NCBI GenBank assembly: GCA_964016885.1
Contig: OZ024742.1
Span: 219,046,001 to 219,110,000, forward strand
Direction: 5' to 3'
DNA from: Eledone cirrhosa
Lineage: Eukaryota
Length of the DNA stretch: 64,000 nt
Part shown: positions 14,665 to 63,203 of the stretch, one piece after another
Layout of the letters: each line of letters begins with the position of its first letter
How positions within the stretch are numbered: the first letter of the stretch is position 1
The notes under the pieces: generated by a model
Database searches by the model: none
Told to the model about the DNA's origin: nothing
The model's input: the letters and a program-made list of their open reading frames with translations, nothing else
Made by a program: the position numbers and the translations under genes

Positions 14665-14747
14665 ACACGCGCTGATGAACCATGGGCTTTTTCATTTCTG
14701 TCAACAACTTATTGGCGAAACAGATTTCTTTGGATTTGTACGTGTGT
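14665..14747 (+). ncRNA. Type I hammerhead ribozyme with fully paired helix III
   Basis: acacgcg-CTGATGA-a cca tggg...ctta t tgg c-GAAA-cagattt cttt ggatttg-TA-cgtgtgt. Helix I is 7 bp and helix III 8 bp including G-U pairs; the cleavage triplet is GUA. Confidence 0.85.
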
Positions 14748-15191
14748 TATATAGTTATAGAGTTACGTATTTACACATTAATTTATATTTTTAATTATCG
14801 TGTGTCTACCCTGCCTTTCATAGGTTATAGATTCCATACACTAGTGGTTTTTTCCCTGTTTTATTGATGGCGCATTATATCTCTCTCTAGTGTGTTACCT
14901 TTTCAAGATATATATATATATATATATATATATATATATATATATATATATATATATATATATATATAATGTATATATCATTTATGTTAGGCTGTTTACC
15001 AATGGGTAGGACTGGGATCGGGTCGGTAAACTATGATGCAGCAAATTAATTAAAGCACTCAACGTTATGCAAATTATTCATCGCAGATGTGGTATCCAGT
15101 GGCTGGTGAAAGAAGAGGGTTAAGTATTCATTAAAACAAAAACAGAAGGCCGCACTGGAAAATTTACTTTAAAATTTTAATTCCGCGAAAG

Positions 15192-15262
15192 CACTATACA
15201 TATTTCGATGGCCGAGCCCTATCATCCGATTGTGATGTAAGACTAGATAATTTCATCAGGTG
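15192..15262 (-). ncRNA. Type I hammerhead ribozyme motif
   Basis: Minus strand: cac-CTGATGA-(about 46 nt)-GAAA-tatgta-TA-gtg. Helix I is short and helix III near-palindromic; helix II pairing is weak. Confidence 0.6.
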
Positions 15263-15618
15263 TTGTTTGCAGAATTATATAATGGATTACGTTGAACCCA
15301 AACAGAGAATAGAAAATACAAAGAAATTGAAAATAGAAAATAGAGCACCGATTTGTTTCGGGGGTCGCCTGCCAATTTGGTGTTATATCGATAGTAGACG
15401 ATCCCCGAATGTAACATTATCAGTTAATGCCAGCTTTGCGTGCTGGTAGGCATAGTGGAGACGGTGGGGTTGTCAAGTGGCGTCAGGAATACATCCGTCC
15501 TGAGAAAATGCCGTTCATCAATTACAGCTAAGGCTTCTCTGCCGCTGAGATCAAAGGGTTCAATCGGGGGTAAACAAAGTAAGTAAAGTACTCAATACAT
15601 TAGTAGAGTATATACAAC

Positions 15619-15714
15619 AAAGTTTAATATAGAAATGGCTTCTACAGGACTAGAACTGTTTCATTCGAATGAAACAGTTCTAGTCCTGTAGAAGCCATTT
15701 CTATATTAAACTTT
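15619..15714. repeat. Perfect 96-bp spacerless palindrome
   Basis: AAAGTTTAATATAGAAATGGCTTCTACAGGACTAGAACTGTTTCATTC|GAATGAAACAGTTCTAGTCCTGTAGAAGCCATTTCTATATTAAACTTT. The same family occurs at 38498-38610 and 45130-45195. Confidence 0.95.
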
Positions 15715-15724
15715 CTTATATATA

Positions 15725-16152
15725 CTAGCACAAAACCACCCTATTGGTGGTTTTCTGCTAGCATGTGTAGTGTGTATATTGATATTATACACAAATATAT
15801 ATGCATGTAAATATGATACATCAAATATAATCGTAATTGACAATATACACAGAAATTGAACAAAGTCTGTTGCACTGTCTTATGTAATCAGTAATTCATG
15901 ATATATTTTAAAAAAGACGACATTATATATAAACTGGATTCGGAGAAAATTAGCGACGGAAATATATGCGATTATAAGTGTTCTAATATAACGGCCGCTA
16001 ACCGGAAGTGTTGACATTTAAAAATTTAACACATAAATTATGTAATATTCATTCATTATTTATTCAAAGTAACCCAACTTATTTTACAAACGGGGTAAAA
16101 AAAAATATATTCTGGACGCAACCACACAGACCTTCCTTTATTATAGTTAAGA
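15725..16152 (-). mobile_element. Non-autonomous Helitron
   Basis: Minus strand runs 5'-TC...CTAG-3' between host A and T, with terminal hairpin CTAGCACAAAACCACCCTATTGGTGGTTTTCTGCTAG. Homologous to 38801-39340. Confidence 0.85.
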
Positions 16153-59900: not shown

Positions 59901-60829
59901 TCTACTTCTATCGTCGAAGTTCTTTAAAGTTTCCTAGAACTTCTATAATTAATTTGATCTTATCCTTAAAGTCAATTTTTAATTGCTTGAATTTTTGAAA
60001 TCCCTAAAAAATTATTTAAAATTATTTAACGATAACTTATTTTATTTCTTTGTCAACTTCTTTGTATGCATTCGGTTGATCAAAATTAAATAGAGCATGG
60101 TCAGTTAATTTCTCCCGATATAAGTTAACCAGATAATGAACATTTGAAGTATTTATTACATTGAAATTAAGCTCGTCCTTAGTAGTTTACCGAGGTTGCT
60201 TATTAGTCCGGCAGGTGTCTGCTTATATCTCAACTAACCATCATATCTTGTCATCGCATCATATCCGCCACCTGCGACCAATTCCCTAGCAGGACACCTC
60301 TGCTATTTTTTTATTTCAATTTTTGTTATTTCTTCAATAATTTCTTTTTAGGAGGAAATGGACAAAATTATGAACCTAGTGTGATAAAATGTGTGATGTT
60401 TCCAAAATTATTTCAACTTCTCTAAAAAGTAAGCATTTAGAGTAGCACTAAACCCTTAGGCCATTAAACTATATGAGAGATGTGTAAAGAAAGAACATTT
60501 GTTTTTACATTGTGTCTCGAATTAATAATGGTTTGAAAGTAAAATTGTTACCTTTATAACAACTTTCTACGGTCGGGCAAAAATAAGTCAAAAACCAAAC
60601 CTCTAAAAATATTTTCTTCTCCTAAGCTTTCTTCTTAGAGCGCTAAAATTCTGGTAGATAGCATTTGAGTTCTCTGGGATTCTGTGCGAAATACTCAAGC
60701 ATGGACTTTTATTTAAAGCCTTTTTGTAATAGAACTGCAGTCTTTCAACACTTCAAACAAAAATTGCGATTTTTTTTTCTTTGATAAAAGGGTTTCGAAA
60801 ATATTCCTTCCCAGAATAGTCGTGTTTCT

Positions 60830-61080
60830 TCTTGGTCTGTCTCGAACCCGGAAGCTCACCATACCGGTGCTTATCCTGGTTTTCGTGGCGTGAAGCGACT
60901 GAGAGTACAAGACTCCCATCCCCTGATCAGGATGCCAGTCCATTGTGGGGTTAAACCCTCTGCTATTGCTGATACGCATTTTCAACTGAGTATACTGGAG
61001 CAACGTAACATGAATTGTTTTTGCTCAGTCCAAGGATCGACTCCACGACATTATGATCGTAAGTCCAACACCCTTACCAC
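60830..61080. mobile_element. SINE-like repeat; a related reverse-oriented piece lies at 8425-8560
   Basis: GACTGAGAGTACAAGAC...GCCAGTCCATTG.GGGGTTAAA.CCCT is the reverse complement of about 8438-8500. Confidence 0.6.
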
Positions 61081-62820
61081 ATATTTTATCGACATTGAAT
61101 ATTTGTCTATCGACATAAGCTTTTCTTTCAAATATCCTTTTTAAAACATCAGAATATTTTTAGTTGCAGTTTTGTTTGCATTTGGACAAAACTAGCAGAA
61201 AGGTTTTATTCAGTTTCAGTTGGAATCTCATTTTCTTTTGTTGGATTGTTTTTAATATCTAAATAGTACTTAAGGAAATTCCATCCTAAAAGTCAAAAGT
61301 GGCTCTGTTTTAATCACGTTACTACCTCTATTGCATGTTGCCAGCTTGCCGGAAGTTGAGGCAGTTTTACATTTTTACTTATAATCATCTATTGTTCTTA
61401 TAATTGTTCTAACTGTTGATTCGTTTATTCCTAAGTCTTGCCCCATTTTTCTTTTGCTATTACTACATTCATATCATTTTATAACCTCAAATTTATTATC
61501 TAGAATGAACATTTTCATGCTACTCTTAGCACAAGAAATATTCTCGCCGACCTTTCTTTCCTCCATAATCGTTGAGGTAAAATGTGCACCAAAATCTAAT
61601 GGAATAGAAGCAACGTGATTGTGGCATGAAGCATAGAGCTTAAGCCAGCACAACATAAACAATAATAACTGATATTTGGAGAAAAAAAACTGTCGCATGG
61701 AGCACGAGGTTCATACATTCATGAAATTATCTGTAGTTAGCCTCTTTCGTGACTGAAATATTCAAAATATGCTAGGACAAGATGAGTTTAGGAAATAGTT
61801 GTAGTAGACTCAAACAACAGCACGCATTCTCACAAGTGCAACTATTAACGAGCATCACAGAACTTAACATTACATCACTAAACAAAAACAACACACGCAC
61901 ACATTCATATATATATAGGAACGAGTAGGACCCCGACGGCTGAGCTCAAGCCGTTTCGACGGCTAATTCTGGACTATTATAAGTAAAAAAGAGTTCAGAA
62001 TTAGCCGTCCAAACGGCTTGAGCTCAGCCGTCGGGGTCATACTCGTTCCTATTACCCACTCTACTACCCTAAGTATTGAGTACTTTGGTGCGTTATGGTC
62101 CACCTGGTTCCTTACCACATTTCCTTCGTTATATATATATATATATATATATATATATATATATATATATATATATATATATATATATATATATATATAT
62201 ATATATATATATATATATATATTACACATGACAACTGAAAGTATAACCGTACTAATTGAGATTGGATCTGTGTTATTTAGAATTTGGTATCAATTTCGAA
62301 ACTTAGAATTTGGTATCAATAGCGAAACTTAAAGTACCAATCCTTTGTCATCTATTGTACTGTACTAATATAAATATTTAACTCTGTCTTTATTGAGTTT
62401 TCTTTTACGTTTTCTTGTTTGTAAACTTAGGTGTGTGTGTGTGTGTGTGTGTGTGTGTGTGTGTGTGTGTGTGTGTGTGTGTGTGTGTGTGTGTGTGTGT
62501 GTGTGTGTGTGTGTGTGTGTGTGTTTGCATATCAATTTGATTCATTTCAATTTTTTTTCTTTCTTGTGTGGAAGTGGGGCGTAAATTTCGTTTTGTGTTT
62601 AAATTTCATCTACAGTGAGTTTGTTTTATTTTAGTATTTTCTGATTTGAATTCCAGCCTTGAAATTTTAAGTGTAAAAAAAGTATTTTAAACCGAAAATA
62701 ACTTCAGTAGAAGAGAAGTTAGGCTAAGAAAATATTTAAAGAAAAAGGTGTGTGAGAAGGGACAGTCAGACATGAATTGAAATTTGTGTTACATATATTT
62801 ATTTATCTATTACTTAAATG

Positions 62821-63032
62821 TAATCAGAAAACATAAGTGGTATATACATACACACACATATATATATATGAGCTTGTGTGTGTACACACACACACACATA
62901 TATATATATATATTTGTTTTTTTTTTAAATATATATATATATATATATGTGTGTGTGTATGTGTGTGTGTACACACAAGCTCATATATATATATGCGCGT
63001 GTGTATGTATATACCACTTATGTTTTCTGATT
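62821..63032. repeat. Fold-back inverted repeat including microsatellite segments
   Basis: TAATCAGAAAACATAAGTGGTATATACATAC...GTATGTATATACCACTTATGTTTTCTGATTA. Confidence 0.85.
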
Positions 63033-63169
63033 ACACACACACATATATATATATATATATATATATATATATATATATATAATGGAAAATTTGAACAGGA
63101 ACAAGACAGAGAGGCAGTACAACGAATGTTTATTAATTTCACGCTCTTGAGAGTGGGGTGGTGGTGGGG

Positions 63170-63203
63170 AACGACGTTTCGGGCATAAGCCCTTCTTCAG
63201 GTC
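63170..63203 (-). ncRNA. Minimal type I hammerhead (same family as 40276-40310)
   Basis: Minus strand: gac-CTGAAGA-a gggc ttat gccc-GAAA-cg-TC-gtt. The triplet is GUC, followed by AATAAA and (TA)n. Confidence 0.8.

Follow-up and report, generated by a model that had tools for sequence, protein, structure and literature searches.

The hammerhead ribozymes found in the window, a stretch of 64,000 nt from the genome of Eledone cirrhosa (contig OZ024742.1, positions 219,046,001 to 219,110,000), are best explained, when taken as a whole, by dense retrotransposition of Penelope-like elements (PLEs) into (TA)n tracts. It is likely that most of these hammerheads are PLE ends, and that retrozymes lacking open reading frames (ORFs) use the PLE enzyme in trans. 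A sequence-only reading of the window had listed 15 type I hammerhead sites (given below by coordinate and strand), which are treated here as families designated by letters; it had also named PLE reverse transcriptase (RT) and the GIY-YIG endonuclease as the likely mobiliser into TA microsatellites. The latter proposal was supported by an insertion anatomy common to PLEs and retrozymes, both in the window and at further loci of the genome (designated L).

Insertion anatomy

In PLEs and retrozymes alike, the 3' end joined (TA)n at one of two fixed positions, which lay 20-200 nt beyond the hammerhead cut; insertions did not terminate at the cut itself. Measured from the cut, the short and long ends lay at about +70 and +190 in family I, +30 and +100 in E, +150 and +205 in G and +20 and +90 in J. 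Single-arm copies used either of the two ends, and inverted clusters almost always carried one of each: among 66 clusters of these four families, 48 had one short and one long end, 2 had the same end twice and 16 were not assignable (p ~1e-12 against a probability of 0.5). The counts of short plus long, same-end and non-assignable clusters were 19/2/9 for family I, 14/0/2 for E, 10/0/2 for G and 5/0/3 for J. Interruptions, odd ends or locus edges accounted for the non-assignable clusters; one of these rows duplicates another locus and two E rows are possibly nested. The tally is limited to I, E, G and J, family H having been left out since TA matches swamped the automated end calls. In family A, six loci were examined and all five two-armed ones had one end of each kind. 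The 3' ends of the retrozymes were internal and without poly(A). At the junctions, short A/T overlaps with the target were observed, the tail was about 55-120 nt long, and the two arms were often joined at palindromes.

Hammerhead motifs in the window and in the genome

The hammerheads of the window are genuine type I motifs and not chance occurrences. The exact CUGANGA core was present on the expected strand at all 15 sites. A general type I descriptor, which tolerates mismatched positions 10.1-11.1 or an additional base following the core and was applied with a cut-off score of at least 7, gave 12 matches in the whole window, compared with a mean of 0.02 and a maximum of 1 in 100 local dinucleotide shuffles, the control that had been proposed together with the list; the reversed window and each of six decoy cores gave 0. 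The list had credited its sites with intact cores and a closing helix I; 11 of the 15 passed this descriptor. At 15192-, 22078-, 40621+ and 52237- both core boxes were present but a helix was broken, and the twelfth match, at 45135+, was missing from the list. A first descriptor found only one site in the window and missed almost all others because it demanded a perfect 10.1-11.1 pair; upon inspection, most families were seen to carry an additional base behind the core or else to be mismatched at this pair. The Rfam Hammerhead_1 scan that had likewise been proposed detected no hammerhead within the window at gathering score, and at E<=5 only AT-repeat microRNA artefacts appeared among the 150 of 189 matches listed. 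The same model (RF00163) matched another hammerhead family elsewhere in the genome. This further family (L001-L010, around position 1500), with a canonical hammerhead, is TA-bounded, has inverted copies and is absent from the window. About 12 decayed copies, as reported before, were recognizable by eye, but a descriptor allowing one core mismatch performed no better than shuffles (2 matches against a mean of 0.63 and a maximum of 3).

The 15 sites correspond to 12 insertions of 11 families, because they include three inverted pairs and because 52237- is related to the family at 28775 and 31578; the existence of many type I families was upheld. Of the 12 window matches, 11 had a (TA)n tract no more than 250 nt 3' of the cut, compared with 19% of random positions; the 5' side showed no regular TA boundary, and there the description of the copies as (TA)n-bounded was not confirmed. 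AATAAA, said to occur often just after the cut, was found within 40 nt of it in only 3 of the 12 window matches and 1 of 16 matches from a genome sample.

The window is a local hammerhead hot spot, with 188 matches per Mb against 40 per Mb in that sample, a difference of about 5-fold. The sample comprised forty 10-kb stretches (400 kb) with 16 matches (bootstrap 15-70 per Mb; shuffles 0-1): a first batch at hand-picked round-number positions gave 13 matches and a second, random batch, in which one coordinate was mistyped, gave 3. The density of one core per 4-5 kb claimed for the genome is therefore correct locally and overstated about 5-fold genome-wide. Extrapolation from the 400 kb to the 3.0-Gb assembly gives about 120,000 intact motifs (45,000-210,000). 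Exact family patterns summed to 41,938 genome matches, not all with whole cores; these included 23,646 for family J, 8,517 for G, 4,288 for M, 3,955 for E, 928 for I, 525 for H and 53 for F. A cephalopod genome thus contains tens of thousands of ribozyme motifs.

Hammerheads at the ends of PLEs

Eight of the 15 sites (three of family G, two of E and one each of H, K and M) had genomic relatives in which PLE RT and/or GIY-YIG is encoded immediately upstream of the hammerhead. Because of this upstream coding, the short copies of these families in the window are read as truncated or inverted ends of autonomous PLEs. In family G (28775-, 31578+, 52237-), the first two sites flank a 3.2-kb element containing coding sequence for RT and GIY-YIG. 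This PLE (28619..31833, plus strand) consists of an inverted arm (28619-29392), a frameshifted RT and GIY-YIG coding region reaching to 31374 and a pseudo-long terminal repeat (pseudo-LTR). Its two hammerheads (28775-28817, minus; 31578-31620, plus) are identical, the inverted arm having the short end and the main arm the long one. The closest named relative of the window's Penelope protein is from Octopus vulgaris (68% identity). Family G also occurred as a 4.08-kb tandem elsewhere in the genome; a DNA search with a family G query found nothing, probably since very common words are skipped. An older relative of this family forms an inverted pair at 52117..52472 with a hammerhead at 52237-52279 (minus).

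Family E (22078-, 22503+) sits behind an RT plus GIY-YIG frame at L089 and L088. In the window, it forms an inverted pair of pseudo-LTRs of an autonomous PLE (21980..22574; hammerheads 22078-22115, minus, and 22503-22540, plus) with one long and one short 3' end. A second, decayed inverted pair of family E was found at 41185..41325 (cores 41281, minus, and 41298, plus). All resolved pairs of both G (10/10) and E (14/14) were arranged in tandem or inverted and had a tail at one end. At L189 and L190, two hammerheads of family M (63170-) enclose a full-length 4.7-kb PLE with RT and GIY-YIG, in tandem; the window copy is a truncated pseudo-LTR (63043..63297, minus) with a minimal hammerhead at 63169-63204, and a decayed relative lies at 40233..40374 (plus). 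For the remaining two families the link involves the endonuclease part only, and a single locus each. Family H (37279+) follows a GIY-YIG frame at L171, and its window element, the pseudo-LTR of a GIY-YIG-bearing PLE (37148..37384, plus), has a hammerhead at 37279-37336 and an inverted tail fragment at 37148-37193. Family K (40621+), a minimal hammerhead at 40621..40663 (plus, core 40627), has a 75%-identical relative about 300 nt behind a decayed GIY-YIG frame at L168. From their linker motifs, G is provisionally labelled Neptune-like, E and H Nematis-like, and M and K Poseidon-like.

ORF-less tandem retrozymes

Three families consist of ORF-less head-to-tail units with one type I hammerhead per unit: I (540 nt), F (487 nt) and A (514 nt), the longest ATG-initiated ORFs being 41, 54 and 88 amino acids, respectively. 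Their units have a GC content of 35-40%. They cover four of the 15 sites (I, 37662- and 38056+; F, 22752-; A, 14665+), and for these the reported ORF-less cassettes were confirmed; the pair 28775-/31578+, however, bounds the coding PLE of family G. The matches to the exact patterns of I and F were spread over many contigs, and family A likewise occurred on many contigs. Family I arrays reached about six units, and copies of up to 6 units traversed the hammerhead cut site intact. In the window, family I is present as an inverted pair (37597..38322) with hammerheads at 37662-37743 (minus) and 38056-38137 (plus); its two 3' ends are those at +70 and +190. Family F is present as 1.3 units (22675..23298, minus), with a hammerhead at 22751-22834 and a partial second copy near 23242-23298. 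The family A insertion (14508..14911, plus) has an inverted long-end tail (14508-14588) and a main arm ending at the short end; its hammerhead (14665-14747, plus) has a long helix III and a predicted cut after 14740. One family A insertion (L053:1952-2874), a single case, has an inverted arm that halts at or beside the predicted cut.

Units diverged by 2.34% within one arm, by 2.42% between the two arms and by 5.48% between different insertions (minimum 2.15, 120 pairs). The tandem units of one insertion shared a common haplotype, their differences being mostly singletons. In array L147, strict ABABABA alternation was observed at three sites, and array L176 showed the variant pattern expected of a two-unit duplication after insertion. 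A dimeric circle as the origin of alternating units would fit L147, but L176 is better explained by the later duplication, and this origin is not claimed. At L180:183-2248, both family I arms carry two distinguishable units in register at two sites, the third site being arm-specific; these arms look as if both had copied one two-unit RNA. The 5' ends of family I arms lay within 34 nt after the cut in 19 of 71 cases, compared with 4.5 expected (L181, which runs into the helix III palindrome, is not counted among the 19), while family F showed little clustering there. The clustering in family I may reflect a ribozyme-made RNA end, stalling of the RT or joining at the A/T palindromes at this site.

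Helix structure and predicted cleavage

A survey of 956 kb, including overlapping loci, yielded 170 distinct matches in 24 sequence clusters, across which cores, helices and palindromes were retained. A perfect helix III palindrome was present in 13 of 21 short-helix clusters, a count partly favoured by the descriptor score. The young families showed little internal helix variation. Covariation within families, proposed as a check in the sequence-only reading, was seen in helix II of family H, where three pairs had compensatory changes and the covariation score was reached by none of 500 shuffles (7 distinct sequences). The canonical G10.1-C11.1 pair was absent in most families, being replaced by C-A, U-U, A-C or A-U, and in some families the predicted cut follows a U. 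The palindromic helix III segments of families D, E, F, H and I pair with those of a second copy and not with themselves, which fits the predicted cleavage of dimers in tandem transcripts; in solitary copies of these families the predicted ribozymes are probably slow or dead.

Families of other or uncertain type

For families B, C, D, J and L, the loci examined yielded no tandem period and no PLE ORF; B, D and L make up the remaining three listed sites, C and J being unlisted. Family J, the commonest family counted, has a variable loop II, and the arms of many of its inverted pairs meet within about 10-55 nt of the core. No full-length copy of it was found among the loci examined, and a link to a GIY-YIG frame at L090 was withdrawn, the frame not being upstream of the J hammerhead. 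In the window, family J comprises an inverted pair forming a palindrome (15607..15726) in which the first core box was lost at the inversion junction, a decayed copy (38500..38560, minus, core 38553) and an intact core (45130..45178, plus) unlisted by the sequence-only reading. The family B element (14980..15559, minus, core 15259) has a weak helix II; two relatives share 1.4 kb and have no PLE protein match. Family C is a decayed hammerhead at 17240..17310 (minus, core 17301). The family D element (21387..21956, minus) has a hammerhead at 21434-21550 with a palindromic helix III and a 90-nt loop II. Family L is represented by a hammerhead at 46260..46344 (minus) and a decayed copy at 44743..44854 (minus, core 44815) with a changed GAAA. 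A decayed hammerhead of a further family, with one core change, lies at 33375..33441 (minus) and belongs to the same family as the palindrome at 44983-45110. A further inverted pair of decayed hammerheads is located at 53511..53799 (cores 53638, minus, and 53671, plus).

Palindromes related to each other, joined to (TA)n and extended on one side but devoid of a hammerhead core, were also observed at 46488-46655 and 61915-62052 and were frequent in other loci. They are probably very short inverted PLE-type insertions of another family.

Proposed mechanism and alternative explanations

In vitro, a PLE protein in purified form was shown to cleave AT-rich DNA on both strands (Frangieh 2024, PMC11167929), and reverse transcription starts at two internal RNA sites, the stretch between them giving rise to a genomic tail that was called a PLE-unique signature (PMC11167929). 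For the elements described here, the GIY-YIG domain would cut both strands of the TA tract, and each of the two DNA ends would then serve as primer at a different internal start site on a single RNA, reverse transcription being carried out by a probably dimeric RT. Joining of the two cDNAs by microhomology would then produce the head-to-head structure, and single-arm copies would derive from one priming event. Judging by published work and by the palindromes in helix III, hammerhead cleavage would be expected to take place in tandem dimers and to set free the retrozyme unit, possibly in circular form. Since reverse transcription would begin close to the hammerhead on its 3' side, short copies would be rich in ribozymes and the local density would be high. 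PLE enzymes very probably mobilise the retrozymes I, F and A in trans, as judged from the anatomy of the insertions, because these ORF-less families obey the same two-end rule as the PLEs. So far, co-occurrence and sequence similarity have been the only arguments as to which enzyme moves animal retrozymes; in the present case, the PLE-linked two-start tail is borne by retrozymes that lack an ORF. The near-strict rule of one start per arm provides a concrete model for inverted PLE insertions, and family I offers a compact 540-nt template with two mapped start sites that is suited to a direct test.

A more extensive proposal is put forward tentatively, and we think it rather unlikely to hold in full: octopod genomes would carry around 100,000 intact hammerheads, a density among the highest reported in animals, and the retrozymes would be circles on which a dimeric PLE enzyme performs rolling-circle reverse transcription from two fixed starts, one per target strand. 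The homogeneous multi-unit insertions and the L147 alternation fit a circular template; the L176 pattern and the clustering of 5' ends speak against it, and the latter could indicate linear cleaved templates. If the circle reading were true, genomic footprints of the cycle would be seen for the first time, in the head-to-head insertions, the one-haplotype arrays and the ABABABA pattern (more than three rounds of copying on a two-unit circle), and a 500-nt RNA would suffice for PLE insertion in trans.

Several points weigh against PLE-driven insertion of ribozyme-bearing RNAs. The I, F and A units showed no sequence match to the four PLE pseudo-LTRs tested. Of the two same-end pairs, that at L179 is clear, the other (L006) having an irregular arm. 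The loci were selected by exact patterns, which biases them towards young copies. Cleavage, expression and circular RNA of these elements are predictions from sequence, and the non-canonical 10.1-11.1 pairs (C-A, U-U, A-C) together with cuts after U may mean weak activity. Only one of nine predicted Xenopus retrozyme dimers was cleaved (Li 2026, 10.64898/2026.07.22.740005). In PMC11167929, no RNA sequencing reads ended at the cut, and the hammerhead was dispensable for insertion in vitro.

The last result also favours the alternative that survives best, namely that the arrays are satellites which originated from one PLE pseudo-LTR, grew by unequal crossover and were dispersed by PLE copying of linear read-through RNA, ribozyme and circles being irrelevant. 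The L176 variants match a two-unit duplication after insertion, and insertions pass intact through the cut site, as this account would have it. Set against these are the shared haplotype of the units of one insertion, with mostly singleton differences at the same level as between arms, and the retention of cores, helices and palindromes in 24 sequence clusters. PLE mobilisation would still be needed, so that only the ribozyme and circle steps differ; we regard this alternative as plausible, though short of probable.

The sequence-only reading itself had attributed nearly all hammerheads to a dedicated set of non-autonomous retroelements with ribozymes, and had put their frequency at one per 4-5 kb throughout the genome. 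In accord with such a population, I, F and A are proven ORF-less tandem families, no PLE protein match was obtained for B, C, D, J and L in the loci examined, and the window copies are mostly short and non-coding. However, eight of the 15 sites were traced to PLE pseudo-LTRs, the pattern counts of the PLE-linked families G, M, E and H are far above those of the proven retrozymes I and F, and the genome sample contained only 40 matches per Mb. A mostly non-autonomous population is accordingly not what was found, and we consider this explanation improbable.

Mobilisation of the retrozymes by a long interspersed nuclear element (LINE; RTE, CR1 or Dong) through twin priming in the manner of L1, with the TA preference due to fragility of microsatellites, is very improbable. 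Twin priming by L1 is a known process, and LINE RT sequence is present in the window. The 3' ends, however, are internal, fixed at two sites and without poly(A), and the same end rule applies to the autonomous PLE families G and E. Moreover, the two arms overlap in the template, as those of L1 inversions do not. Finally, chance motifs in AT-rich, repeat-rich DNA, for which one might cite the negative Rfam result at gathering score and the single match of the strictest descriptor, have a negligible probability in view of the shuffle, reversal and decoy-core controls, the palindromic helix III, the compensatory changes and the placement in PLE pseudo-LTRs.

Comparison with published systems

Hammerheads in PLE pseudo-LTRs were described by Cervera & de la Pena 2014 (PMC4209133), mostly as solitary copies or opposite-strand pairs 100-700 bp apart that were read as truncated PLEs. 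The type I motif in the pseudo-LTR, the extra nucleotide after A9 in families G, K and M and the palindromic helix III agree with that description. In contrast, several families of E. cirrhosa have a loop II of 25-90 nt, palindromes of 8-10 nt and a 10.1-11.1 mismatch in place of the conserved G-C. The estimated density is higher here than the counts in PMC4209133, the descriptors being different. With the animal non-LTR retrozymes (PMC7229834; Li, Clavereau & Pollet 2026), families I, F and A share ORF-less head-to-tail repeats of low GC content (35-40%) and co-occurrence with PLEs, and U-U at the base of helix II also occurs in the axolotl HHR_Amex2. Unit lengths are 487-540 nt here, compared with 170-400 nt (PMC7229834) and 51-972 bp (Li 2026). 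Unlike the published retrozymes, those described here are mostly dispersed (TA)n insertions of one or two units with 5' inversions, and their link to PLEs comes from insertion anatomy and not from phylogeny, no pseudo-LTR homology having been found. The PLE hypothesis for non-LTR retrozymes was already raised in PMC7229834 and Li 2026. For the axolotl, 126,247 motifs (PMC7229834) in 28 Gb (Li 2026) correspond to about 4.5 per Mb, obtained with a descriptor different from ours.

The tails resemble those of published PLEs (PMC11167929; Craig 2021, PMC8557442; Arkhipova 2013, PMC3846280) in the two internal starts 3' of the hammerhead, the AT-rich target, the inverted 5'-truncated arm and the tail at one end; a tail at one end only is often seen in PLEs (PMC8557442, PMC3846280). 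They differ in length (about 55-120 nt against 30-40) and in the short A/T overlaps with the target, compared with an anole element that starts without homology. The one-site-per-arm rule, relative to the published tails, was counted here (48 of 50 assignable clusters) and extends to ORF-less elements.

Cephalopods are found neither in the passages of PMC7229834 nor among the taxa of Li 2026. The repeat annotation of Octopus vulgaris (PMC13282606) lists PLE expansions, and its main text makes no mention of ribozyme, hammerhead or retrozyme. A full-text literature search, with subscription papers and supplements (which may list cephalopod hammerheads) outside its scope, revealed no report of cephalopod retrozymes and no two-start footprint in ORF-less retrozymes. 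Both kinds of element, PLE hammerheads and non-LTR retrozymes, are thus already published; the cephalopod instance and the footprint in ORF-less retrozymes were not found in print.

Other features of the window

The window is rich in microsatellites. A decayed Helitron with Pif1 helicase and Helitron N-terminal domains was found at 202-4038 (minus), and a broken LINE with RT and C-terminal C2H2 fingers at 25902-28224 (plus). A repeat of about 190 bp resembling a short interspersed nuclear element is present in many copies, some in inverted clusters (36492-36681, 47552-49364, 50834-51365, 9938-10336 and others). A spurious microRNA match came from a long, nearly perfect hairpin next to a GT-rich microsatellite (13748-13906), and a minisatellite array with a 71-bp repeat lies at 49916-50776. 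The exon encoding the coiled-coil N-terminus of a cGMP-dependent protein kinase was located at 43619-43723 (plus). Downstream of it, five hammerhead or decayed cores are antisense and one (45135) is sense, numbers that are too few to indicate a bias.

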